In this document: positions 4,622 to 63,824 of the stretch, piece by piece
Layout of the letters: every line of letters begins with the position of its first letter
Numbering within the stretch: the stretch's first letter is position 1
Assembly (NCBI RefSeq): GCF_016903815.1
Contig: NZ_CP069973.1
DNA: 64,000 nucleotides
DNA from: Escherichia coli
GTDB taxonomy: Bacteria; Pseudomonadota; Gammaproteobacteria; Enterobacterales; Enterobacteriaceae
Reading direction: 5' to 3' (one strand)
Notes under the pieces: generated by a model
The model's database searches: none
What the model saw: the letters and a program-made list of their open reading frames with translations, nothing else
What the model was told of the DNA's origin: nothing
Made by a program: the position numbers and the translations under genes

Positions 4622-7600
4622 TTACACCTTTTCCACATTCACAAGGAAGGACTTAAACTCTGGCGTCTGCGTGTTCGCATCACCAACGAATGGCGTTAAC
4701 GTATTGGCAATAAAGCCTTTTTTCGCAACACCTTCATAGCCCCAGTGAATCGGAATACCGATGGTATCGATATCTTTGCCGTTCGCTTTCAGCGTGCGAA
4801 TACGTTTGGTCACCACCGCTTTGGCTTTTATATAGCCACGGTTGGAGGAGACTTTCACTGTATCGCCCTGGGCAATGCCAAGTTTATTCGCCAGCGACTC
4901 ACCGATTTCCACAAACTGCTCTGGTTGCAAAATCGCGTTCAACAGCGCGTGTTTGGTCCAGTAGTGGAAGTGCTCGGTCAGACGATAGGTGGTTCCGACA
5001 TACGGGAACTTATCGGCTTTACCCAATGCTTCGGCGTCGTCTTTAAAGATACGTGCAGCCGGGTTCGAGATAACGTTTGGATGCAGCGGGTTAGTTCCCA
5101 GCGGCGTTTCAAACGGCTCGTAGTGTTCCGGGAACGGACCTTCCGCCATCTTATCGAGGGCAAACAGACGCCCCATGCCTTCCTGCTGCATGATAAACGG
5201 CCCAACGCCACTGCCCGGAGGCGCTGCGCTGTAGTCCGGAATATCCCAGCCGGTCCACTTAGTGCCGTCCCATTTCAGCAACTGACGCTTCGGATCCCAC
5301 GGGTTACCCTGCGGATCTGCGGAGGCGCGGTTATACAGAATGCGGCGGTTAAGCGGCCATGCCCATGCCCAGCCCAGCGTGTTACCGAGGCCAGACGGAT
5401 CGGCGTTATCACGACGCGCCATCTGGTTGCCCTCTGGCGTCCAGCTACCGGCGAAAATCCAGCAGCCACAGGAGGTGGTACCGTCATCGCGCAGTTGGGC
5501 GAACGAGCTAAGTTGTTGGCCTTTCTTGACGATAACCGCACCGGTTGCCGGATCGGTAATATCGGCCAGCGCCTTACCGTTGCTCTCCATCGCCACTTCT
5601 TCCGACTTCGGCTCATGCGGGATGGCGTAGTTCCAGGTCATGTTCAGCACCTGGTCCGGGTTCGCGCCACCCTGTTCGGCATACATCTTGCGCAAGCGCA
5701 GGAAGATACCGGAGAGGATCTCGCCGTCAGTCAGCGCAATCCCAGGGGCGTCCGCACCTTTCCAGTGCCACTGCAACCAGCGACCTGAGTTAACGATTGA
5801 ACCGTTCTCTTCCGCGAAGCAGGTCGATGGCAGACGGAACACTTCGGTCTGGATCTTCGACGAGTCAACTTCGTTCAGCTCACCGTGGTTCTGCCAGAAG
5901 TTAGAGGTTTCAGTGTTCAGCGGGTCGATGGTGACGAGGAACTTCAGTTTCGACAGACAACCGATCACTTTGTTTTTGTTCGGGAATGAGGCAACAGGGT
6001 TAAAACCCTGGCAGATATAGCCATTGACCTTGCCTTCTTTCATCATCTCGAAGTATTGCAGGACGTCGTAGCCTTTATCCCACTTCGGCAACCAGTCAAA
6101 GCCCCAGCTATTTTCCGCCGTCGCTTTATCACCAAAGAAGGCCTTCATCATAGAGACGAAGAATTTCGGGTAGTTGCCCCAGTAGTTTACCTGGCCTTCC
6201 AGCAGCGGTTTTGGCGTGTTGGCGGTAAGGTAGGTTTGCAGATCGGTCTGCTTCTCGCTTGGCAGCGTCATGTAACCCGGCAGGCTCTGCGACAGCAGCC
6301 CCAGGTCCGTCAGCCCCTGAATATTGGAGTGACCGCGCAGGGCGTTAACGCCGCCGCCGGCCATCCCCATATTGCCGAGCAGCAGCTGGATCATCGCCAT
6401 CGTACGAATGTTTTGCGCACCAACGGAGTGTTGCGTCCAGCCGAGGGCATACAGGAACGAGGCAGTTTTATCGTGTGCACTGGTTTCGGCGATGTATTCG
6501 CAGACTTTCAGGAACGCGTCTTTTGGCGTACCACAGATGTTTTCAACCACATCTGGCGTGTAGCGGGAAACGTGCTGTTTCAGCAAGTTCCACACGCAGC
6601 GCGGATGTTGCAGCGTGGTATCGCGTTTGGCGAAGCCGTTTTCGTCCAGTTCGTAAGTCCAGGAGGATTTATCGTACTTGCGTTTTTCCGCGTCGTAGCC
6701 GGTGAACAGGCCATCTTCAAAGCCGTAATCCTCACGCACGATAAGGCTAGCGTTGGTATAGGCTTCGGTATATTCGCGGTTGAATTTTTCATTGTTCAGC
6801 AGGTACAGCAATACGCCTGACAGGAAAGCAATGTCAGTACCGGAACGAATAGGGGCATAGTAGTCAGCCACCGCCGCCGTACGCGTAAAGCGAGGATCGA
6901 TCACAATCAGCTTCGCGCCGTTGTGAATTTTGGCTTCCATCGCCCAGCGGAACCCGACCGGGTGAGCTTCAGCGGCATTACCGCCCATCACCACGACGAG
7001 GTTGGCGTTCTTGATGTCGACCCAGTGGTTGGTCATCGCACCGCGACCAAATGTTGGAGCAAGACTTGCTACCGTTGGTCCGTGTCAGACACGCGCCTGG
7101 TTGTCGACCGCGAGCATCCCCAGCGCGCGGGAGAATTTTTGCGTTAAATAGCCGGTTTCGTTACTCGACGCGGAAGCACAAAGCATCCCGGTGGAGAGCC
7201 AGCGGTTAACAGTCACGCCTTCGGCGTTTTGCGCAATGTAGTTAGCATCGCGGTCTTCTTTCATCAGTTTGGCGATGCGATCAAACGCCTCTTCCCAACT
7301 GATTTGCTGCCATTTATCAGAACCTGGCGCACGGTATTCCGGAAACTTCAGACGGCTTTCGGAGTGGATGAAATCCACCAGGCCAGCGCCTTTCGGACAA
7401 AGTGCACCGCGGTTGACCGGGTGATCCGGATCGCCTTCGATATGGAAGATAGATGCTTTGGCGTTTTTTGCTCCGTCACCGAGGCTGTACATCAACAGCC
7501 CACAGCCTACGGAACAATAGGTGCAGGTATTACGGGTTTCGCGGGTGCGCAGCAGTTTATACTGCCGGGTTTCCGCGAGTGCTACGCTGGGTGCAAAACC

Positions 7601-7672
7601 CAGTGCCGCTGCCGTGGTGCCTGCCATACCGCCAGCGCAGATCTTAAAGAACTGCCTTCTGCTGACCTGCAT
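4622..7672 (-). CDS. fdoG: formate dehydrogenase-O catalytic subunit, selenoprotein; in-frame UGA (Sec) at 7085..7087
   Basis: Track ORFs 7085..7672 and 4622..7036 are in one frame separated only by TGA; Tat-like RRQFFK N-terminus; reading continues HGPTVASLAPTFGRGA-MTNHW after the UGA. Confidence 0.93.
7040..7084 (-). promoter_or_regulatory. candidate SECIS stem-loop directly 3' of the fdoG UGA
   Basis: mRNA after UGA contains GCAAG-U-CUUGC nested within GACCAA...UUGGUC. Confidence 0.5.
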
Positions 7673-7865
7673 GGATTGCTCCTTGTTTCGACATTGTCAC
7701 GTCCCATTTACATTCGCTTGCTGCGTGTGCAGGGAGTGGGAGTTATTTTTCTTTGCGGAAGGGGCCGCAAAGGTCCAGAATTGGCTCAATTTCCCTCCAT
7801 CCAGGAAGGGTTTGTAACAGAATACCATAATGTTGGTGTGTGTGTTCTTATCTGGTTAAGAGAAA

Positions 7866-8699
7866 GTGAAAAAAACACAGCAAAAAGAAATCGAAAATGT
7901 GACAAATGTCACAGGTGTTCGTCAAATTGAGTTATGGCGGCGTGATGATTTACAACACCCACGGTTAGATGAGGTCGCGGAAGAAGTTCCCGTTGCGCTG
8001 GTCTACAACGGCATTTCGCATGTGGTGATGATGGCGTCGCCCAAAGACCTTGAGTACTTTGCGCTCGGTTTTTCGCTTTCCGAGGGGATTATCGAAAGTC
8101 CGCGCGATATCTTCGGTATGGATGTCGTTCCTTCCTGTAATGGTCTGGAAGTGCAAATTGAGCTTTCCAGCCGCCGCTTTATGGGGTTGAAGGAGCGCCG
8201 CCGGGCGCTGGCGGGACGTACGGGCTGTGGCGTATGCGGTGTAGAACAGCTTAACGATATCGGTAAACCGGTGCAGCCGCTGCCGTTCACCCAGACGTTT
8301 GATCTCAACAAACTGGATGATGCATTACGTCATCTCAATGATTTCCAGCCAGTGGGGCAACTGACTGGTTGTACTCACGCCGCTGCATGGATGTTGCCAT
8401 CTGGCGAACTGGTCGGCGGGCATGAAGACGTGGGTCGCCATGTGGCGCTGGACAAACTGTTAGGCCGCCGGTCACAAGAAGGGGAAAGCTGGCAGCAAGG
8501 TGCGGTACTGGTTTCCAGCCGTGCCAGTTATGAAATGGTGCAAAAGTCGGCGATGTGCGGCGTAGAGATTTTGTTTGCGGTGTCTGCCGCGACCACGCTT
8601 GCTGTAGAAGTGGCTGAGCGCTGTAATCTGACACTGGTAGGTTTTTGTAAACCGGGTCGGGCAACGGTTTATACCCATCCGCAGCGTTTGAGCAATTAA
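7866..8699 (+). CDS. fdhD: formate dehydrogenase sulfurtransferase/accessory protein FdhD
   Basis: 277-aa ORF; recognised sequence; divergent from fdoG. Confidence 0.93.
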
Positions 8700-22115: not shown

Positions 22116-23146
22116 TTCGCCATGCCCATGCCGACGATGTTGGCGGCGACAATAATCACCACACAACCGAGGCTCAACACCGTTACCGGACGGCGACCTG
22201 CATTGTTCCACTCTTTCAGCACCAGCCCGACGATACCGCCGCACAATACATAGAAGCTCATATGCAGCATCCAGCTGATGTAGTCATACTGCGCCGGAAT
22301 ACGCGCGTGGCCCCAGGCATAGAAAAAGAATTGCAGATACCACATCAACCCGCCCAGTGCTGAGAGTAACACATTGTGAATGATCAGCGGTTTTGCCAGC
22401 GAGAAGTCGGCTTTTAGCGACAAATCCTTCACTTTTGCCAGACGAGTGAAGCAGAAACCGAGGTTGATGATCGCGCCGCCTCCCATGATGACAACATAGC
22501 TTGGCAGAGCGACATACAGTGGATCGACGCCCAGTGCAGCAGCGGCTTCATGCATCGGTTTTGCGGCGTTCATCGCAAAGGACATCCCGGCAGAGAAAAT
22601 GCCGCACATCACCGCCAGCACCAGCCCTTTTTTCAGGTTGAACTCTTCGGCTTTAATGCCCATCTTGCGCTCTTTCAACTGCCCGGCGCGAGTTACAATC
22701 CCTACGCCAATCAGCGCCACCAGAACGCCGAGCAACGTCATGCGTCCGCCTTCGGTATTAATCAGAACATCGAAATTGCCGTTGATAATTGGCGTCATCA
22801 GCGTACCGACAATCAACGTAATGCCAATGGCGATGCCAATTCCCATCGACATGCCGAGATAACGCATGGTCAGGCCGTAGTTGATATTACCGATCCCCCA
22901 CATTGCGCCGAACAGAAAAACAGGCAGCAGCGTAGAGAGACTAAACGAGCTGTAATACGCCCAGAAATTCGGTAGTAACAGGGCGCTGATGGCCCACGGC
23001 AGAATAATCCACGAAACAATCCCACCAACTGACCACATGGTTTCCCATGACCATTTTTTTACTTTTTTGAACGGAGCGTAAAAACAGGCTGCACTGGCCG
23101 CGCCGATCAAATGCCAAAATATCCCCATCGTAATCGCGTTAATCAT
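22112..23146 (-). CDS. rhaT: L-rhamnose-proton symporter
   Basis: 344-aa polytopic membrane ORF; recognised. Confidence 0.93.
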
Positions 23147-26120: not shown

Positions 26121-26220
26121 CCGGAGTGTAGGCCTGATAAGACGCTATCAGCGTCGCATCAGGCATCCTGCTCAAATGCCGGATGCGGCGTAAACGCCTT
26201 ATCCTGCCTACAAATGCGGA
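26121..26220. repeat. REP cluster between yiiM and cpxA
   Basis: GCCTGATAAGACGC...GCGTCGCATCAGGC and GCCGGATGCGGCGTAAACGCCTTATCC palindromic units. Confidence 0.75.
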
Positions 26221-31204: not shown

Positions 31205-31290
31205 CGCTTATCAGGCCTACATGAATTCTGCAATTTATTGAATTTGCAAACTTTTGTAGGCCGGATAAGGCGTTCGCGCCGCATCCGGCA
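31205..31290. repeat. REP elements between pfkA and sbp
   Basis: GCTTATCAGGCCTACA and TGTAGGCCGGATAAGGCGTTCGCGCCGCATCCGGCA units. Confidence 0.7.
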
Positions 31291-53000: not shown

Positions 53001-54178
53001 AACGGGTATGGCGGCGTGAACGGGACCTGACGGGCTGGATGTCGCTGTCATGGAAACCGGAAGTGCCCTGGTACGGCTGGGACGGCGACCGGCTGACCAC
53101 AATACAGAACGACAGAACCCGCATCCAGACGGTTTATCAGCCGGGGAGCTTCACGCCACTCATCAGAGTTGAAACTGCCACCGGTGAGCTGGCGAAAACG
53201 CAGCGCCGCAGCCTGGCGGATGCGCTTCAGCAGTCCGGCGGTGAAGACGGTGGCAGTGTGGTGTTCCCGCCGGTGCTGGTGCAGATGCTCGACCGGCTGG
53301 AAAGTGAAATCCTGGCTGACCGGGTGAGTGAGGAAAGCCGCCGCTGGCTGGCATCGTGCGGCCTGACGGTGGAGCAGATACAAAACCAGATGGACCCGGT
53401 GTACACGCCGGCGCGAAAAATCCACCTGTACCACTGCGACCATCGCGGCCTGCCGCTGGCGCTTGTCAGCACGGAAGGGGCAACAGAATGGTGCGCAGAA
53501 TACGATGAATGGGGCAACCTGCTGAATGAAGAGAACCCGCATCAGCTGCAGCAGCTCATCCGCCTGCCGGGTCAGCAGTATGATGAGGAGTCCGGCCTGT
53601 ATTACAACCGCCACCGCTATTATGACCCGCTGCAGGGGCGGTATATCACTCAGGATCCGATTGGGCTGAAGGGGGGATGGAATTTTTATCAGTATCCGTT
53701 GAATCCGATCTCAAATATAGATCCATTAGGATTATATGAATTTAAATCAAAAAATATAGATGATATTGGAATATTTGCATTGGCAATGTGTAATGGAGAA
53801 TCAATTAACGAGAATAAAGAATATGGTGGGCTAATATGTAAGAAGCAAGGTGAATATTTCCCCATGAATCCGATAAGTTCAAATGATAATGATAGTGTAG
53901 ACTTGCGAAATATAAAATGCCCTGAAGGTTCAGAGAGAGTAGGCGATTATCACACTCACGGTTTTTACTCTGACGATAAAGGCAATAAAGTAACAAAAGA
54001 AAATGATGTTTATGATAGTCTAAATTTTTCAAGCAAAGATTTAACGAATTCTTATATGAATGGAATGGGAAAAAAAGAATACAGTAGTTACTTGGGAACA
54101 CCAAATAACACCTATCTAAAATATAATCCCAAAGCTAAAGGGAATGGAGTTACAATTATCAGGCAAGGGAGTAATTAA
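50006..54178 (+). CDS. Rhs-family polymorphic toxin (1390 aa): RhsA-like N-terminus, YD-repeat core, AT-rich C-terminal toxin tip
   Basis: N-terminus [17 protein letters not shown]...; many YD/RYxYD repeats; core-end motif [27 protein letters not shown] near aa 1243; composition switch near 53690. Confidence 0.9.
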
Positions 54179-54179
54179 A

Positions 54180-54503
54180 ATGAAGGTAATACAATGTTGT
54201 TATTTCCTTGCTTTAGTCTCCAGTCATTTAATGGCTGGAGTTATGAGTGATGACAATATATTTTTAAGTAATTCGGATTTAGCTGCTTTATATTGTGTGG
54301 CTAAAATATTTCCAGATGGAGAAAATATTTTAATATATAAAGTAAATATAATTAATGCTAGTTCAAAAAAAGATGTATTTTTTTATGAAAGCCCAACATC
54401 AACCCACAATGACATAATGGGGGGCGGGGGAATGTCATATGCCTATGAATATGATGTAAAATATAATATATGTCATTTGAGAAAAAAGAGCAGAATGAGG
54501 TAA
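54180..54503 (+). CDS. putative cognate immunity protein (107 aa from MKVIQCCYFLALVSS...)
   Basis: ATG 1 nt after the rhs TAA (TAAaATG); GGGAG SD inside the rhs 3' end; same AT-rich composition as the toxin tip. Confidence 0.5.
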   Translation: MKVIQCCYFLALVSSHLMAGVMSDDNIFLSNSDLAALYCVAKIFPDGENILIYKVNIINASSKKDVFFYESPTSTHNDIMGGGGMSYAYEYDVKYNICHLRKKSRMR

Positions 54504-54759
54504 AAATCTTTGGCTGTGTATTCAGTCTGGTAATCATCCAAGGAAAGCTCATCAGAAGGGTGATGACTCCAATTAGTAGAACATATATTTTCGATAAAAG
54601 CACCGATGACTTTTTCATGAAGTTCTACAGAACGCGAGAAACAGATGGTTCTGCGGGCCAGACGTTTGATTCGGGTTCTCAGGGGCAGATTGTTACGCTC
54701 AATGGGTGATGCTGCCAACTTACTGATTTAGTGTATGATGGTGTTTTTGAGGTGCTCCA

Positions 54760-55035
54760 GTGGCTTCTGTTTCTATCAGCTGTCCCTCCTGTTCAGCTAC
54801 TGACGGGGTGGTGCGTAACGGCAAAAGCACCGCCGGACATCAGCGCTATCTCTGCTCTCACTGCCGTAAAACATGGCAACTGCAGTTCACTTACACCGCT
54901 TCTCAACCCGGTACGCACCAGAAAATCATTGATATGGCCATGAATGGCGTTGGATGCCGGGCAACCGCCCGCATTATGGGCGTTGGCCTCAACACGATTT
55001 TCCGCCATTTAAAAAACTCAGGCCGCAGTCGGTAA
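54760..55035 (+). CDS. insA: IS1 InsA
   Basis: 91-aa [25 protein letters not shown]... Confidence 0.92.
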
Positions 55036-55457
55036 CCTCGCGCATACAGCCGGGCAGTGACGTCATCGTCTGCGCGGAAATGGACGAACAGTGGGGATAC
55101 GTCGGGGCTAAATCGCGCCAGCGCTGGCTGTTTTACGCGTATGACAGGCTCCGGAAGACGGTTGTTGCGCACGTATTCGGTGAACGCACTATGGCGACGC
55201 TGGGGCGTCTTATGAGCCTGCTGTCACCCTTTGACGTGGTGATATGGATGACGGATGGCTGGCCGCTGTATGAATCCCGCCTGAAGGGAAAGCTGCACGT
55301 AATCAGCAAGCGATATACGCAGCGAATTGAGCGGCATAACCTGAATCTGAGGCAGCACCTGGCACGGCTGGGACGGAAGTCGCTGTCGTTCTCAAAATCG
55401 GTGGAGCTGCATGACAAAGTCATCGGGCATTATCTGAACATAAAACACTATCAATAA
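54954..55457 (+). CDS. insB: IS1 InsB reading frame (expressed as InsAB' by frameshift)
   Basis: 167-aa ORF overlapping insA in the -1 frame. Confidence 0.9.
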
Positions 55458-56186
55458 GTTGGAGTCATTACCCGCTCAATGTGCTGAGTAAAAATCTTAC
55501 CAGTCAGATGCTTCTCCTTTGGTAACTCTCTAGCGTAACTACCCCATTCGTCAGTGGTCAACATGCCGATGGTAAAAGGGTAAGCAGCGCCAGCAGTTCA
55601 CGACAGGTTTCATCAGTCCGGGGGCCAAAAGTGTAGGCCAGAACACCACCAGTTTTCGTGTTGTACACGTACCAGAGCCAGTGCTGTCGCGCTTTACTGC
55701 CGACAAAGCTCCATTGCTGACTAAGTTCGCAGATGAGTGCCACATCAGCATGAGCGACCGGGGATGACGTTATTTTTCGTGGCGAGAGTTTTTTAAAGTT
55801 CGGATGACTGTATTAATGCCAATTTTCAGCGTACGGGCAGTATAGCGAACCCCGGCACCGTTGAAAGCCATTTCAGCGATTTGGTCTTTAACTCCTGGTT
55901 TACGGGGCTCGTAACAGTAACTGAGCTGAAATACCCGGTGACAGTCACGGCCGCGGAATCGATCATGTCTTTTGGGGTTCTGCCCGTGACGGTAAACCTG
56001 AACGGACTGGCAACGGGGACAATGAAGGTTAACTGTGACCATGAAACAACCTTAAAAGCGAGTATTATATCCTTAATTCAACTAATTGGAGGCATCACCG
56101 TTTACCGGAGCGACAGCTTGCGGAAAGGTCGTGCAACTACAAAGCAACAAACAGACTACGGCGGGAATTATTTTTTTTATCATCCA

Positions 56187-56795
56187 TTACCACGAAAACA
56201 GCGGCCATTCTTTGGCAACAGTGGTGAGTTGTGGCGCATCGAAAACGGCTTGTGGCGAGACCACCGTTTCCTCAAGCGGAATATTCTTGCCGTAACGTTC
56301 TTTGAGCTTTGCCTGAACTTGTGGGCTGCTCAGGTCGAACTCTTTCAACTTCTGCTGTTCGCCCACGCGCATTCCCAGCGCATTCTGATAAACCTTCCAC
56401 ACCACTTCCGAACAGTACTGGCGATCGTCGCTCCACGAGAAGCTGAAATCGTACGGTTTGCCGAGATAACGTTTTGCCGTTTGCGCCAGTTTTTGCTGTT
56501 GTTTAACACTCAGTCCGCCTTCAACGCGGCGAACAACGTATTTGCCCTTTTCACCATGGGCAATCCACTGCTTGAGCGGGGTGTATTTCACCGGGCCGAC
56601 CGCTTCAAAAACGTAGGGCTTTTTGTTACGCATCACCAGCATACCGGTGTGGCTGTAATCGGAATGGGTCGCCAGTTGGATCGCTTTACTTTGCGATGAG
56701 CGAGAGATCTGAAAGATGATGTCGCCGGTTTGTGGTTGCCAGGCAAATGCAGGCACAGAAACCAGCAGACCGGGGATCAGTAGCCTGATTATCAT
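56187..56795 (-). CDS. yiiX: secreted NlpC/P60-like peptidase-family protein YiiX
   Basis: 202-aa ORF with signal peptide; synteny with metJ. Confidence 0.85.
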   Translation of the reverse strand: MIIRLLIPGLLVSVPAFAWQPQTGDIIFQISRSSQSKAIQLATHSDYSHTGMLVMRNKKPYVFEAVGPVKYTPLKQWIAHGEKGKYVVRRVEGGLSVKQQQKLAQTAKRYLGKPYDFSFSWSDDRQYCSEVVWKVYQNALGMRVGEQQKLKEFDLSSPQVQAKLKERYGKNIPLEETVVSPQAVFDAPQLTTVAKEWPLFSW

Positions 56796-56854
56796 CGTTA
56801 AACGTCCATGTATAAAAAAAGCGGCAGGTTAACTCCGCGCCGCTCTTTTCCGCT

Positions 56855-57172
56855 TTAGTATTCCCACGTCTCCGGGTTAATCCCCATCTCACGCATGATC
56901 TCTTTTGCCGCTTCCGGGATTTCGTCGCTGCGCTCTTTACGCAGATCGGCATCATCCGGCAAAGGTTGCCCGGTAAAGGCATGCAGAAACGCTTCGCACA
57001 GCAGCTCGCTGTTGGTAGCGTGACGCAGGTTGTTCACCTGACGACGCGTGCGTTCATCGGTGAGGATTTTTAACACCTTAAGAGGAATGGAAACCGTAAT
57101 CTTTTTGACTTGTTCACTCTTCTTGCCGTGCTCAGCGTATGGGCTGATATATTCGCCGCTCCATTCAGCCAT
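56855..57172 (-). CDS. metJ: methionine repressor MetJ
   Basis: 105 aa from [41 protein letters not shown]; track ORF over-extends. Confidence 0.95.
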
Positions 57173-57361
57173 GAGATACTTAATCCTCTTCGTCAATAAA
57201 TTGAGACCAGACCACACAGTTAGTGTGGGTACTGACCGTAAACCCGCATAGTTTACCGTACAGGCGTTACCGTGACATCGTGTAATGCACCTGTCGGCGT
57301 GATAATGCATATAATTTTAACGGCTATTTGGGATTTGCTCAATCTATACGCAAAGAAGTTT

Positions 57362-57385
57362 AGATGTCCAGATGTATTGACGTCC
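57362..57385. promoter_or_regulatory. tandem MetJ boxes in the metJ/metB divergent control region
   Basis: Contiguous 8-bp units AGATGTCC AGATGTAT TGACGTCC resembling the AGACGTCT consensus. Confidence 0.7.
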
Positions 57386-57448
57386 ATTAACACAATGTTT
57401 ACTCTGGTGCCTGACATTTCACCGACCAAGCCCAGGGAACTTCATCAC

Positions 57449-58609
57449 ATGACGCGTAAACAGGCCACCATCGCAGTGCGTAGCGGGTTAAATGACGACG
57501 AACAGTATGGTTGCGTTGTCCCACCGATCCATCTTTCCAGCACCTATAACTTTACCGGATTTAATGAACCGCGCGCGCATGATTACTCGCGTCGTGGCAA
57601 CCCAACGCGCGATGTGGTTCAGCGTGCGCTGGCAGAACTGGAAGGCGGTGCCGGTGCCGTACTTACTAATACCGGCATGTCCGCGATTCACCTGGTAACG
57701 ACCGTCTTTTTGAAACCGGGCGATCTGCTGGTTGCGCCGCACGACTGCTATGGCGGCAGCTATCGCCTGTTCGACAGCCTGGCTAAACGTGGTTGCTATC
57801 GCGTGTTGTTTGTTGATCAAGGCGATGAACAGGCATTACGGGCAGCGCTGGCAGAAAAACCCAAACTGGTACTGGTAGAAAGCCCAAGTAATCCATTGTT
57901 ACGCGTCGTGGATATTGCGAAAATCTGCCATCTGGCAAGGGAAGTCGGGGCGGTGAGCGTGGTGGATAACACCTTCTTAAGCCCGGCATTACAAAATCCG
58001 CTGGCATTAGGTGCCGATCTGGTGTTGCATTCATGTACGAAATATCTGAACGGTCACTCAGACGTGGTGGCCGGCGTGGTGATTGCTAAAGACCCGGACG
58101 TTGTCACTGAACTTGCCTGGTGGGCAAACAATATTGGCGTGACGGGCGGCGCGTTTGACAGCTATCTGCTGCTACGCGGGTTGCGAACACTGGTGCCGCG
58201 TATGGAGCTGGCGCAGCGCAACGCGCAGGCGATTGTGAAATATCTGCAAACCCAGCCGTTGGTGAAAAAACTGTATCACCCGTCGCTGCCAGAAAATCAG
58301 GGGCATGAAATTGCCGCGCGCCAGCAAAAAGGCTTTGGCGCAATGTTGAGTTTTGAACTGGATGGCGATGAGCAGACGCTGCGTCGTTTCCTGGGCGGGC
58401 TGTCGTTGTTTACGCTGGCGGAATCATTAGGGGGAGTGGAAAGTTTAATCTCTCACGCCGCAACCATGACACATGCAGGCATGGCACCAGAAGCGCGTGC
58501 TGCCGCCGGGATCTCCGAGACGCTGCTGCGTATCTCCACCGGTATTGAAGATGGCGAAGATTTAATTGCTGACCTGGAAAATGGCTTCCGGGCTGCAAAC
58601 AAGGGGTAA
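57449..58609 (+). CDS. metB: cystathionine gamma-synthase
   Basis: 386 aa from MTRKQATIAVRSGLNDDEQYG; track ORF over-extends. Confidence 0.95.
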   Translation: MTRKQATIAVRSGLNDDEQYGCVVPPIHLSSTYNFTGFNEPRAHDYSRRGNPTRDVVQRALAELEGGAGAVLTNTGMSAIHLVTTVFLKPGDLLVAPHDCYGGSYRLFDSLAKRGCYRVLFVDQGDEQALRAALAEKPKLVLVESPSNPLLRVVDIAKICHLAREVGAVSVVDNTFLSPALQNPLALGADLVLHSCTKYLNGHSDVVAGVVIAKDPDVVTELAWWANNIGVTGGAFDSYLLLRGLRTLVPRMELAQRNAQAIVKYLQTQPLVKKLYHPSLPENQGHEIAARQQKGFGAMLSFELDGDEQTLRRFLGGLSLFTLAESLGGVESLISHAATMTHAGMAPEARAAAGISETLLRISTGIEDGEDLIADLENGFRAANKG

Positions 58610-58611
58610 AA

Positions 58612-61044
58612 ATGAGTGTGATTGCGCAGGCAGGGGCGAAAGGTCGTCAACTGCATAAATTTGGTGGCAGTAGTCTGGCTGATGTGAAGTGTTATTTGCG
58701 TGTCGCGGGCATTATGGCGGAGTACTCTCAGCCTGACGATATGATGGTGGTTTCCGCCGCCGGTAGCACCACTAACCAGTTGATTAACTGGTTGAAACTA
58801 AGTCAGACCGATCGTCTCTCTGCGCATCAGGTTCAACAAACGCTGCGTCGCTATCAGTGCGATCTGATTAGCGGCCTGCTACCCGCCGAAGAAGCCGATA
58901 GCCTCATTAGTGCCTTTATCAGCGATCTTGAGCGCCTGGCGGCGCTGCTCGACAGCGGTATTAACGACGCGGTGTATGCGGAAGTGGTGGGCCACGGCGA
59001 AGTGTGGTCGGCGCGCCTGATGTCTGCGGTACTTAATCAACAAGGGCTGCCAGCGGCCTGGCTTGATGCTCGCGAGTTTTTACGCGCTGAACGCGCTGCG
59101 CAACCGCAGGTTGATGAAGGGCTTTCTTACCCGTTGCTGCAACAGCTACTGGTACAACATCCAGGCAAACGTCTGGTGGTGACCGGGTTTATCAGCCGTA
59201 ACAACGCCGGTGAAACGGTGCTGCTGGGGCGTAACGGTTCCGACTATTCCGCGACACAAATCGGTGCGCTGGCGGGAGTTTCCCGCGTAACCATCTGGAG
59301 CGACGTCGCCGGGGTATACAGCGCCGACCCGCGTAAAGTGAAAGATGCCTGCCTGCTGCCGTTGCTGCGTCTGGATGAGGCCAGCGAACTGGCGCGTCTG
59401 GCGGCTCCCGTTCTTCACGCCCGTACTTTACAGCCAGTTTCTGGCAGCGAAATCGACCTGCAACTGCGCTGTAGCTACACGCCGGATCAAGGTTCCACGC
59501 GCATTGAACGCGTGCTGGCCTCCGGTACTGGTGCGCGTATTGTCACCAGCCATGATGATGTCTGCTTGATTGAGTTTCAGGTGCCCGCCAGCCAGGATTT
59601 CAAACTGGCGCATAAAGAGATCGACCAGATCCTGAAACGTGCTCAGGTGCGCCCACTGGCGGTTGGCGTGCATAACGATCGCCAGTTGCTGCAATTTTGC
59701 TACACCTCAGAAGTGGCCGACAGTGCGCTGAAAATCCTCGACGAAGAGGGATTACCTGGCGAACTGCGCCTGCGTCAGGGGCTGGCGCTGGTGGCGATGG
59801 TTGGGGCGGGTGTCACCCGTAACCCGCTGCATTGCCACCGCTTCTGGCAGCAACTGAAAGGCCAGCCGGTCGAATTTACCTGGCAGTCCGATGACGGCAT
59901 CAGCCTGGTGGCAGTACTGCGCACCGGACCAACCGAAAGCCTGATTCAGGGGCTGCATCAGTCCGTCTTCCGCGCAGAAAAACGCATCGGCCTGGTATTG
60001 TTCGGCAAGGGCAATATCGGTTCCCGCTGGCTGGAACTGTTCGCCCGTGAGCAGAGCACGCTTTCGGCGCGTACCGGCTTTGAATTTGTGCTGGCAGGCG
60101 TGGTGGACAGCCGCCGCAGCCTGTTGAGCTATGACGGGCTGGACGCCAGCCGCGCGTTAGCCTTCTTCAACGATGAAGCGGTCGAGCAGGATGAAGAGTC
60201 GCTGTTCCTGTGGATGCGCGCCCATCCGTATGATGATTTAGTGGTGTTGGACGTTACCGCCAGCCAGCAGCTTGCTGATCAGTATCTCGATTTTGCCAGC
60301 CACGGTTTCCACGTCATCAGCGCCAACAAACTGGCGGGAGCGAGCGACAGCAATAAATATCGCCAGATCCACGACGCCTTCGAAAAAACCGGGCGTCACT
60401 GGCTGTACAACGCCACCGTCGGTGCGGGCTTGCCGATCAACCATACCGTGCGCGATCTGATCGACAGCGGCGATACTATTTTGTCGATCAGTGGGATCTT
60501 CTCCGGCACGCTCTCCTGGCTGTTCCTGCAATTCGACGGTAGCGTGCCGTTTACCGAGCTGGTGGATCAGGCGTGGCAGCAGGGCTTAACCGAGCCTGAT
60601 CCGCGTGATGACCTTTCCGGCAAAGACGTGATGCGCAAGCTGGTGATTCTGGCGCGTGAAGCGGGTTACGACATCGAACCAGATCAGGTGCGCGTGGAAT
60701 CGCTGGTGCCTGCCCATTGCGAAGGCGGTAGCATCGACCATTTCTTTGAAAACGGCGATGAACTTAACGAGCAGATGGTGCAACGACTGGAAGCGGCCCG
60801 CGAAATGGGGCTGGTGCTGCGCTATGTGGCGCGTTTCGATGCCAATGGCAAAGCGCGTGTGGGCGTGGAAGCGGTGCGTGAAGACCATCCGCTGGCATCA
60901 CTGCTGCCGTGCGATAACGTCTTTGCCATCGAAAGCCGCTGGTATCGCGATAACCCTCTGGTGATCCGTGGGCCTGGCGCGGGGCGCGACGTCACCGCAG
61001 GGGCGATTCAGTCGGATATTAACCGCCTGGCGCAGTTGTTGTAA
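58612..61044 (+). CDS. metL: bifunctional aspartokinase II / homoserine dehydrogenase II
   Basis: 810-aa ORF immediately after metB; recognised. Confidence 0.95.
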   Translation: MSVIAQAGAKGRQLHKFGGSSLADVKCYLRVAGIMAEYSQPDDMMVVSAAGSTTNQLINWLKLSQTDRLSAHQVQQTLRRYQCDLISGLLPAEEADSLISAFISDLERLAALLDSGINDAVYAEVVGHGEVWSARLMSAVLNQQGLPAAWLDAREFLRAERAAQPQVDEGLSYPLLQQLLVQHPGKRLVVTGFISRNNAGETVLLGRNGSDYSATQIGALAGVSRVTIWSDVAGVYSADPRKVKDACLLPLLRLDEASELARLAAPVLHARTLQPVSGSEIDLQLRCSYTPDQGSTRIERVLASGTGARIVTSHDDVCLIEFQVPASQDFKLAHKEIDQILKRAQVRPLAVGVHNDRQLLQFCYTSEVADSALKILDEEGLPGELRLRQGLALVAMVGAGVTRNPLHCHRFWQQLKGQPVEFTWQSDDGISLVAVLRTGPTESLIQGLHQSVFRAEKRIGLVLFGKGNIGSRWLELFAREQSTLSARTGFEFVLAGVVDSRRSLLSYDGLDASRALAFFNDEAVEQDEESLFLWMRAHPYDDLVVLDVTASQQLADQYLDFASHGFHVISANKLAGASDSNKYRQIHDAFEKTGRHWLYNATVGAGLPINHTVRDLIDSGDTILSISGIFSGTLSWLFLQFDGSVPFTELVDQAWQQGLTEPDPRDDLSGKDVMRKLVILAREAGYDIEPDQVRVESLVPAHCEGGSIDHFFENGDELNEQMVQRLEAAREMGLVLRYVARFDANGKARVGVEAVREDHPLASLLPCDNVFAIESRWYRDNPLVIRGPGAGRDVTAGAIQSDINRLAQLL

Positions 61045-62138
61045 TCCTGAGCCAGAGAAAGCAGTATTTGCGTAACGCGCCCTGCGGAAAGCGGGGCGCT
61101 GTGAGTAAATACTGCTTGTTTATGTAGCCAGTCGATAAAATGTCTGCTGGTTGCTAAAGAGAGCATTTCTGCTTTGCTGTTATTTCCGCCCGTTAATGCA
61201 CATACCATTTTACGATTTTTGCCCTGAACCCAGAGTTGCCACTGATTTTTCCACCAGCCGTGATAAGTTGTTCCCTGAAAACGCCAGGGCATATTATCGG
61301 TATCGTCAGCTATTTCCTCTTCAATAAACCAAATCTCACCTTGCTGTTGGCGAAACAGATCAGCCCATGCCGTAATAATGGCACCTCTTAAAAAACACTC
61401 GTGTGAAATTACATGTGTTTTTACTGTAGGGAATAAAATATTCAGTACTCTGAAATGCCCGTGTGCAGTGATAACCGGACGCAGAATAACACCTTTAGCA
61501 TTGCGTTTGAGCGCTGCGCTGCCATATTGAATCTCATCAAACTGACTGCGGCGTAGAAATTGTGCTTCGCGCATATCAACGCGTTGTACAATATTACTCT
61601 CGTGTAACTCTGGTTCTGCATTCCCTCTGTATCGATAATGCAGACTTTCTCCAGCCTGATGCTGCGTGTAATTAGTAGAAAGATGAAGAATATTACCGCG
61701 AAGAGCATCAAAACTGATTAAAACATACAGTTTCTGCCCGCCGCTGGCTCCCTGAAATGGCACCAGAAGAGCAACCGTTTCGATTATTTCAGGAGGCGTT
61801 ATTTCTTTCTGATATTGTTTAGGTGTCCAGACTTTTTTGCAGTTACGACATTGAATGCGTTGCGACCCCTGTGGATTGTGGCCATAACAAATCGTCTTTG
61901 TGCCATAACATACCGGGCAGAAATGACCTTTCTCAGTTGCAAAAGTAGATAAGTGAACTGACAACCAGTCACGAAATTGCTGTTCGTCAAACAACGGCGG
62001 GTAACTTCCACATGCCCGACAGTGCAGTGCCGGATAACCCAGTCGATAGTCTGGCCAGCTGTAATCTGTCGATGTTGGTTGCCCTAAATTACGACAACCA
62101 AACGACTTGCAGGCATTAATCGTAAACAGAGTCGACAT
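61008..62138 (-). CDS. hypothetical Zn-ribbon protein (376 aa), possibly transposase-derived; 3' end overlaps metL by 37 nt
   Basis: Long ORF; N-terminal CxxxxC...HCxxC and CPVC...CRNC motifs loosely resembling IS1595-type transposase zinc ribbons; rest unrecognised. Confidence 0.45.
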   Translation of the reverse strand: MSTLFTINACKSFGCRNLGQPTSTDYSWPDYRLGYPALHCRACGSYPPLFDEQQFRDWLSVHLSTFATEKGHFCPVCYGTKTICYGHNPQGSQRIQCRNCKKVWTPKQYQKEITPPEIIETVALLVPFQGASGGQKLYVLISFDALRGNILHLSTNYTQHQAGESLHYRYRGNAEPELHESNIVQRVDMREAQFLRRSQFDEIQYGSAALKRNAKGVILRPVITAHGHFRVLNILFPTVKTHVISHECFLRGAIITAWADLFRQQQGEIWFIEEEIADDTDNMPWRFQGTTYHGWWKNQWQLWVQGKNRKMVCALTGGNNSKAEMLSLATSRHFIDWLHKQAVFTHSAPLSAGRVTQILLSLAQDYNNCARRLISD

Positions 62139-62270
62139 ATATCACCAACGATTTCACAAGGTCGTTGATTTTGTCCGGCAACTATCCCCTGCGGATGTGA
62201 TTACTCTCACATAAATAACTCTTTCAGAACGTAATGTAGCAATCCTTTAAATCACTGAAAGGGACTATTT

Positions 62271-63824
62271 ATGAAAATTAAAATACTTGCTGCGGGTATC
62301 GCATTAACATTGCCGTTCTGGGCTTGCGCCAAAGATGTCACCATCATTTATACCAACGACCTCCATGCGCATGTCGAGCCTTATAAAGTGCCGTGGATCG
62401 CTGATGGTAAACGGGATATTGGCGGCTGGGCAAATATCACTACGCTGGTTAAGCAAGAAAAAGCAAAAAATAAAGCGACATGGTTTTTTGATGCGGGTGA
62501 TTATTTTACCGGGCCATATATCAGCAGCCTGACCAAAGGTAAGGCTATTATCGATATTATGAATACTATGCCGTTTGATGCCGTCACGATAGGCAACCAT
62601 GAATTTGACCACGGCTGGGACAACACATTATTACAGTTGAGTCAGGCAAAATTCCCTATTGTGCAGGGCAATGTTTTTTATCAGAACAGCAGTAAATCAT
62701 TCTGGGATAAGCCATATACCATCATCGAAAAAGACGGTGTGAAAATAGGCGTTATAGGTTTGCACGGTGTATTTGCCTTTAATGACACGGTATCTGCGGC
62801 AACGCGAGTGGGGATTGAAGCGCGTGATGAAATTAAATGGCTACAACGTTATATCGATGAACTTAAAGGCAAGGTTGATTTGACCGTCGCCCTGATCCAT
62901 GAAGGTGTTCCGGCCCGCCAGTCCAGTATGGGAGGCACAGATGTGCGTCGCGCGCTGGATAAAGATATTCAGACGGCAAGTCAGGTGAAAGGGCTGGATA
63001 TTTTGATCACCGGACATGCGCATGTGGGTACGCCGGAACCGATTAAAGTCGGCAATACGCTCATCCTCTCCACTGACAGCGGCGGGATTGATGTGGGCAA
63101 ACTGGTTCTCGACTACAAAGAGAAGCCGCATGATTTTACGGTGAAAAACTTCGAGCTTAAAACCATTTACGCCGACGAGTGGAAGCCCGATCCGCAAACA
63201 AAACAGGTGATCGACGGCTGGAATAAAAAGCTTGATGAAGTGGTGCAACAAACGGTCGCGAAATCGCCGGTTGAATTAAAACGTGCCTATGGTGAATCGG
63301 CTTCCCTCGGGAACCTGGCGGCTGATGCTTTACTGGTAGCGGCGGGTAAAAACACCCAATTGGCGTTAACCAACTCTGGCGGCATTCGCAATGAGATCCC
63401 CGCAGGGGCGATTACGATGGGCGGCGTCATCAGTACCTTCCCGTTTCCCAACGAACTGGTGACGATGGATCTCACGGGTAAACAATTACGCAGTTTGATG
63501 GAACACGGCGCAAGTTTAAGTAATGGCGTTTTACAGGTATCGAAAGGCCTGGAAATGAAGTACGACAGCAGTAAGCCGGTTGGTCAGCGGGTAATCACGC
63601 TGACTCTGAATGGCAAACCGATTGAAGATGCGACGATTTACCACATTGCTACTCAGAGTTTCCTTGCTGATGGTGGAGATGGTTTTACCGCCTTTACCGA
63701 AGGGAAAGCGCGTAACACAACGGGCGGTTATTACGTTTATCACGCCGTGGTTGATTACTTCAAAGCGGGTAACACCATCACGGATGAACAGATCAACGGT
63801 ATGCGCGTGAAAGATATCAAGTAA
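62271..63824 (+). CDS. secreted bifunctional metallophosphatase / 5'-nucleotidase family protein (UshA-like)
   Basis: Signal peptide [20 protein letters not shown]; calcineurin-like motifs DLHAH, GDYF, GNHEFD, GHAH; 5'-nucleotidase-like C-terminal half. Confidence 0.75.

Follow-up and report, generated by a model that had tools for sequence, protein, structure and literature searches.

Elements of the IS1 family are about 768 bp long and are bounded by imperfect terminal inverted repeats of about 23 bp that start with GGTGATG or GGTAATG. They carry insA, which encodes a zinc ribbon and an HTH, followed by insB', which encodes a DDE domain, and a -1 frameshift at an A6C motif joins the two into InsAB'. 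Insertion of such an element leaves a target-site duplication of 8-9 bp. The name IS1H occurs in the literature mostly in ISfinder-based counts of insertion sequences, as for E. coli W. Where target duplications are missing, the typical reasons are adjacent deletions or recombination between two IS copies (PMC11708052).

The locus described here lies in a stretch of 64,000 nucleotides of the E. coli contig NZ_CP069973.1 (assembly GCF_016903815.1), referred to below as the window. Its components are all of well-described kinds, namely a canonical IS1, an annotated and fixed IS1H relic, and the signature of an IS-associated rearrangement, and what is new is the clone-specific insertion site only. 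Compared with IS1A, IS1B and IS1R, the inner element has the same 768 bp, the same repeats of about 23 bp, the same insA/insB' arrangement with its A6C motif and the same 9-bp duplication; the element itself is no different, and only its location, at 54704/54705 within an IS1H relic, is unseen among 5,426 genomes. Compared with the fixed IS1H-type relic at the Rhs element between rpmE and yiiX, the window copy has the same frameshifts and the same junctions but is interrupted by IS1. The locus is almost certainly a stack of two separate transposition events that differ greatly in age.

The inner IS1 (54705..55472, plus strand) has complete terminal repeats and open transposase frames, and a script check of the window gave a distance of exactly 768 bp between the two 9-mers that flank it. 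Its first bases are GGTGATGCTGCCAACTTACTG, its terminal repeats run from GGTGATGCTGCCAAC at the one side to GTTGGAGTCATTACC at the other, and its ends read GGTGATGCTGCCAACTTA and, as the reverse complement, GGTAATGACTCCAACTTA. The insA frame (54760..55035, plus strand, 91 aa) matches Pfam Zn_ribbon_InsA and HTH_Tnp_IS1, and the insB frame (54954..55457, plus strand, 167 aa) covers profile positions 1-131 of 131 of DDE_Tnp_IS1, so that PF03811, PF12759 and PF03400 are all matched over their full length. A motif search placed the programmed A6C frameshift motif, TTAAAAAACTC, at 55009..55019 on the plus strand, and a -1 shift there gives an open InsAB' of 232 aa, whose score against NF033558, the NCBIfam equivalog model for IS1 transposases, is 243.8 bits, the cut-off being 100. 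In its length, its terminal repeats, its insA/insB' frames with the A6C frameshift and its target duplication, the inner element is thus a complete member of the family. Many copies on chromosomes and plasmids that PGAP annotates as 'IS1-like element IS1B family transposase' without a pseudogene flag match its 768 bp with 100% identity, and one of these identical copies lies on plasmid CP023821.1 of E. coli strain 7/2. Judged by this identity, the inner IS1 is predicted to be of functional type and looks active. The window contains no other copy of IS1. A degenerate pattern for IS1 ends returned four exact ends within the block, at 54559 (plus), 54705 (plus), 55472 (minus) and 56099 (minus), and therefore two nested pairs of inverted repeats; the sole further match in the window, at 22785, has 2 mismatches, and shuffled sequence gave 0.41 matches on average.

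An earlier, sequence-only reading of this DNA held that IS1 is flanked by identical 9-mers and had transposed as a unit, and both statements are borne out. The left (54696..54704) and right (55473..55481) target-site duplications, which have no strand and were located by reading the sequence and by script, are both CGCTCAATG; the match ends at the tenth base, and by chance two fixed positions would agree at 9/9 bases with a probability of about 4e-6. The chromosome of strain 7/2 (CP023820.1, L003) aligns without gaps to window positions 47559..54704 (99.8%) and 55473..63000 (100%), and these two alignments overlap by exactly 9 bp, which correspond to the target CGCTCAATG, present there as a single copy. 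Given this overlap and the single target sequence in an uninterrupted host element, strain 7/2 represents a true empty site.

The exact junction between IS1 and the relic was found in 0 of the 5,426 complete E. coli genomes searched, so that the nested junction rests on one sequence. Junction matches that looked full length proved to be either an ST410-type IS1F insertion at another site or unrelated piecings. The lack of the junction from all of the complete genomes searched, and the abundance of IS1 in E. coli genomes (median about 11 places in each), could be taken to mean that the nesting is an assembly artefact in which a multi-copy IS1 was misplaced inside the relic. Such an error is extremely improbable, as target-site duplications are not generated by misassembly, and as the insert has exactly the full length and the 9 bp repeated perfectly on its two sides occur only once in strain 7/2, which is otherwise identical; finished genomes, moreover, show independent IS1 insertions in the same relic and in its neighbours. 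The insertion of IS1 is recent and clone-specific, and the junction 30-mers TTGTTACGCTCAATGGGTGATGCTGCCAAC and GGAGTCATTACCCGCTCAATGTGCTGAGTA would identify the clone that carries it.

In the more recent of the two events, a functional-type IS1 would have transposed, in a strain closely related to E. coli 7/2, by the route usual for IS1, in which a -1 frameshift at A6C yields InsAB', the terminal repeats are cleaved and the target is cut with a 9-bp stagger. A 7/2-like strain with the identical plasmid-borne IS1, a putative donor, is a plausible source background. The element would have landed in the insB remnant of the relic, in the codons for a conserved I-E-R motif, with duplication of CGCTCAATG. 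A 19-nt inverted repeat, 84% complementary, pairs 55316..55334 inside the inner IS1 with 55472..55490, in the relic just past the IS1 end; its arms are homologous I-E-R-coding segments of two insB genes in opposite orientations, which means that IS1 hit the relic's counterpart of its own sequence. The insertion hit an element that no longer functioned, so that nothing was inactivated: it is an ordinary, strain-specific insertion that has no evident functional effect and disrupts no functional gene, and the one likely consequence is a new, predicted-active IS1 and recombination substrate beside the Rhs toxin/immunity pair and yiiX.

The host element consists of 54559..56099 minus the insert and one 9-mer, that is, of 764 bp on the minus strand. 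The earlier reading had described an older and divergent IS1-family element on the opposite strand to IS1, and such an element is indeed there, with about 53% nucleotide identity to IS1 and, after repair, a pass of the NCBIfam model; the boundary that it drew at 56100 lies one base too far. Its remark that the block directly follows the Rhs immunity gene is correct as to adjacency, but 54504..54558 are spacer and not part of the element. A pattern scan and a repeat finder identified the outer terminal inverted repeats, GGTGATGCCTCCAATTAG and GGTGATGACTCCAATTAG, as 26-nt arms that are 88% complementary. The 3' piece of the relic (54559..54704, minus strand), recognised from the terminal repeat at 54559, from DDE_Tnp_IS1 positions 90-127 and from alignment to an intact relative, comprises the IRR and the end of the insB remnant, and its last 9 bases are CGCTCAATG. 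The 5' piece (55482..56099, minus strand), delimited by alignments and the end pattern, holds the IRL, an insA-like ORF, a retained A6C motif, and the N-terminal and middle parts of the insB remnant.

The claimed resemblance of the outer InsA- and InsB-like segments to the IS1 family is evident from both Pfam and NCBIfam. The pieces match Zn_ribbon_InsA, HTH_Tnp_IS1 and DDE_Tnp_IS1, with Pfam hits on each of the three fragments, and when two missing bases are restored the relic encodes an InsAB' of 231 aa that scores 245.2 bits against NF033558. The reconstructed 764-bp relic is 100% identical to the uninterrupted copy in strain 7/2, which carries the PGAP label 'IS1-like element IS1H family transposase, frameshifted'; its identity is 98.8% with the copy in O157:H7, 94% with L005, a 766-bp copy from a Salmonella plasmid in which the transposase gene is intact, and 78% with a relic on an enteroaggregative E. 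coli plasmid. With IS1-type terminal repeats as well as InsA and InsB homology, its membership of the IS1 family is secure, and the element is dead.

The manner of its decay agrees with what had been read from the sequence, namely that the older element retains an InsA-like ORF, that its InsB-like frame is split, and that the C-terminal piece runs without a stop into the flank. The insA-like ORF (55770..56042, minus strand, 90 aa, supported by Pfam) is open, but probably not functional, because one of the four zinc-ribbon cysteines has been lost through a Cys-to-Gly change at the third position (RFRGRDCH as compared with RFRCRDCH in the intact relative). Alignment to an intact relative locates a 1-bp deletion that splits insB in a C-run at 55571..55584 (minus strand), and the resulting N-terminal fragment of 61 aa (55558..55743, minus strand, DDE_Tnp_IS1 positions 1-55) has its first DDE aspartate replaced by serine (ELSQQW, as against EPDEQW in the intact copy). 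A second 1-bp deletion, in an A-run at 54582..54596 (minus strand), was recognised by alignment to the 766-bp Salmonella copy and is common to the O157:H7 copy. It lies eight codons before the normal insB stop and removes it, as the frame misses the TAA, continues across the terminal repeat and ends in the flanking DNA, at 54473. With two deletions, a lost stop and the Cys-to-Gly and Asp-to-Ser changes, no intact transposase frame is left in the relic. The O157:H7 copy has the same two 1-bp deletions and the same two substitutions, and the decay is therefore old.

The outer element does keep both terminal repeats, the insA-like ORF and the A6C motif, and PGAP names it as IS1H family, so one could regard it as a functional IS1H variant that by nature has no internal stop and makes its transposase through more than one frameshift. 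That proposition is scarcely credible in view of the 94%-identical Salmonella plasmid copy, which has a continuous InsAB' frame with the stop inside the element, whereas the window copy has the two deletions and is without the zinc-ribbon cysteine and the first DDE aspartate. In all genomes inspected the chromosomal match lies at the rpmE-yiiX locus, each genome has few copies (a median of 2 matching places), the sampled copies with at least 98% identity are all chromosomal and the sampled plasmid matches are only 89-92% identical relatives, and the PGAP frameshifted flag is present in 4 of the 4 finished genomes examined. The pattern is that of an immobile relic.

At least 80% of the length of the relic is present in 2,399 of the 5,426 complete E. 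coli genomes, and in every copy inspected it is located between the rpmE-linked Rhs element, made up of the rhs core gene and dsORF-f3, and yiiX. Copies at this locus in O157:H7 and other strains are 98-99% identical to the reconstructed relic and share its frameshifts. Gap-free alignments through both junctions demonstrate that the relic junctions are the same in O157:H7, ST410-type, 20KM2222 and 7/2 genomes, which points to a single old event and not to a mobile element.

Upstream of the block, the gene for the Rhs core protein (50006..54178, plus strand, 1390 aa) matches Pfam RHS and DUF4329 within its C-terminal 258 aa, DUF4329 being a toxin-type domain, and is annotated as 'RHS element core protein' in the corresponding loci L002 and L003. 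It is followed by dsORF-f3 (54180..54503, plus strand, 107 aa), the presumed Rhs immunity gene, which PGAP calls 'RHS element protein dsORF-f3' in L001 and L003. This ORF has no Pfam or NCBIfam match, and a search for relatives in other species or settings yielded nothing but fragments and close relatives from E. coli. A spacer of 55 bp (54504..54558) separates it from the relic. A scan of the IS block for promoters and terminators yielded nothing above the shuffled expectation. Across about 14.7 kb the window differs from strain 7/2 at 14 positions, all within two patches of the rhs core ORF (50065..50277 and 52312..52508), a clustering more in keeping with tracts of gene conversion by other rhs paralogues than with point mutation. 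Further along, the interval 61008..63824 contains metL, then a minus-strand ORF of 376 aa that overlaps the metL 3' end, and then a gene for a bifunctional metallophosphatase/5'-nucleotidase of 517 aa; at this place K-12 and O157:H7 have metF-katG, and strains 7/2 and KW21 are arranged like the window. Rfam matches at gathering level, at 7032..7090, 26131..26208, 31213..31254, 44906..44963 and 49575..49627, comprise SECIS_3, naRNA4, ES036, the ClpQY (hslVU) promoter element and the L31 leader upstream of rpmE, and are ordinary for the region.

A target duplication belonging to the older element, which the sequence-only reading proposed to look for, was sought at the two flanks of the relic and is absent: the sequence on the left is CATCAGAAG and that on the right GTTTACCGG, and the two have no similarity. 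On the right, just downstream of yiiX, lies a stump of 33 codons (MIKKIIPAVVCLLLCSC...; 56082..56183, minus strand), in which 28 codons of a TIGR02117/DUF2459 lipoprotein gene (56100..56183) are fused to 5 codons and a stop inside the terminal repeat of the relic. The 86 bp between the relic and DNA homologous to K-12 (56100..56185) are found in 2,466 genomes, and in E. coli B-type strains this segment overlaps an annotated 'TIGR02117 family protein'. Window positions 56100..56399 align to positions 8001..8300 of the E. coli B-type sequence L008, in which the full gene of 624 bp occupies 7458..8081; its product scores 225 bits against TIGR02117 and matches DUF2459. The window retains the 5' 81 bp of this gene; in place of the other 543 bp, and of the 7 bp between the gene and the rpmE terminator, it has the whole block 49894..56099, containing rhs, dsORF-f3, the spacer and the relic. 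The outer end of the relic (56099|56100) is the exact breakpoint with respect to the E. coli B-type allele. As there is no target duplication and the TIGR02117 gene is truncated at the end of the relic, DNA was lost or replaced there; and with that end lying against the first 28 codons of a gene that E. coli B retains whole, the probable cause is an old deletion or replacement associated with the IS.

The complete TIGR02117 gene occurs in 289 of the 5,426 genomes (BL21, HS and E. coli B among them), and in all 288 full-coverage matches to the part that the window lacks it stands directly beside the rpmE terminator, without the Rhs island; K-12 has neither the gene nor the island. With the gene intact in some E. 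coli, absent from K-12 and reduced to a stump here, the rpmE-yiiX interval has three alleles: the intact gene (289 genomes), the Rhs island with the relic and the 28-codon stump (about 2,200-2,400 genomes), and neither gene nor stump, for which K-12 is the one inspected.

How the second of these alleles arose can be proposed as follows. An IS1H-type element would have come to lie between the rpmE-linked Rhs element and yiiX and would later have lost its function. The relic would have lost one of its flanks, so that its IRL end now abuts codon 28 of the TIGR02117/DUF2459 gene and its IRR end joins Rhs-island DNA, and an IS-promoted adjacent deletion, or recombination through the IS, would have removed 543 bp of the gene along with distal Rhs-island DNA. 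Adjacent deletion or recombination through the IS is the most likely cause of the missing flank. As in other cases of IS-promoted adjacent deletion or IS-IS recombination, the window keeps an IS and one flank, the other flank being replaced without a duplication. Among the E. coli genomes searched with the missing part of the gene, there was no pre-deletion intermediate with both the Rhs island and a complete TIGR02117 gene, and for this reason we infer the order of the old events and the mechanism of deletion from the comparison of alleles. The earlier suggestion that the block may have removed downstream orphan modules of the Rhs element is a plausible conjecture. No orphan rhs C-terminal fragments or immunity genes are found between dsORF-f3 and yiiX, where the 55-bp spacer and the relic are accompanied by no further rhs-like sequence. 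The demonstrable loss is that of most of the chromosomal DUF2459 gene.

Alternatively, the Rhs island may have arrived with IS1H as its end, either by recombination via an IS1H that was already present in the TIGR02117 gene or by replicon fusion. The coincidence of the right boundary, relative to the E. coli B-type allele, with the outer end of the relic is what such an arrival would leave, and related IS1H-type elements do occur on Escherichia and Salmonella plasmids. Nevertheless, this history is rather unlikely: a pattern scan and a repeat search detected no second IS1H end or remnant, or any other extra IS1-type end, at or near the island's left boundary, no structure that could be the donor came to light, and the homologues of dsORF-f3 are in E. 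coli only.

The relic and its surroundings have been hit by IS1 on other occasions. About 190 genomes, mostly ST410-like, have an independent IS1F in the same relic, 48 bp from the window site (L002 6440..7891), with its own duplication, GTTCTGCG(G). In strain 20KM2222 (L001 6001..6768) an IS1A sits in the toxin-coding region of rhs, where it is flanked by the duplication TTAGGTTTA and splits the Rhs C-terminus, and in strain TW14425 (L012 600..1296) an IS1 is inserted in dsORF-f3. IS1 has thus settled repeatedly at the 3' end of this Rhs island, and the whole region, which is dispensable, gathers copies of it. Outside the chromosome, the pAA-type plasmid AP043642.1 of enteroaggregative E. coli (L007 2491..4033) carries an IS1A within an IS1H-like relic between aap and aatP. 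This IS1A has the same relative orientation, lies 2 bp away from the homologous position and is flanked by a duplication of 8/9 bp, (C)TCAATGCG. The replicon, the host element and the target duplication all differ from those of the window, and the plasmid case is therefore an independent event at a near-homologous site.

Insertions of IS1 into IS1H-type relics could reflect a target preference, or merely the tolerance of junk DNA. The idea of a specific IS1 hot spot within IS1H relics is weakened by the insertions of IS1 in the rhs toxin region and in dsORF-f3; moreover, the pAA case came from a junction query that is biased toward nearby sites, and a hot spot is not established. A bolder proposal would be that IS1 prefers the segment of insB that codes for Q-x-I-E-R-N-N-L and, separately, that the end of the relic records a single ancient IS-mediated event which installed or trimmed the Rhs island and destroyed the DUF2459 gene in about 40% of E. 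coli. The preference is suggested by two independent insertions that share their orientation and whose homologous positions, in relics with only 78% identity, are no more than 2 bp apart, and by a third 48 bp away. We regard this proposal as improbable; if it were true, old IS1-family relics would be safe landing pads for IS1.

For annotation, the 33-codon stump and the read-through insB fragment are best treated as pseudogene debris. The comparison clarifies the history of the rpmE-yiiX locus, with its three alleles and a breakpoint that is the end of the relic, and the IS1/IS1H junction cleanly marks the lineage of a 7/2-like clone of E. coli. A predicted-active IS1 next to an Rhs toxin/immunity pair and yiiX is also a new substrate for recombination, one that could seed deletions or inversions at this locus.
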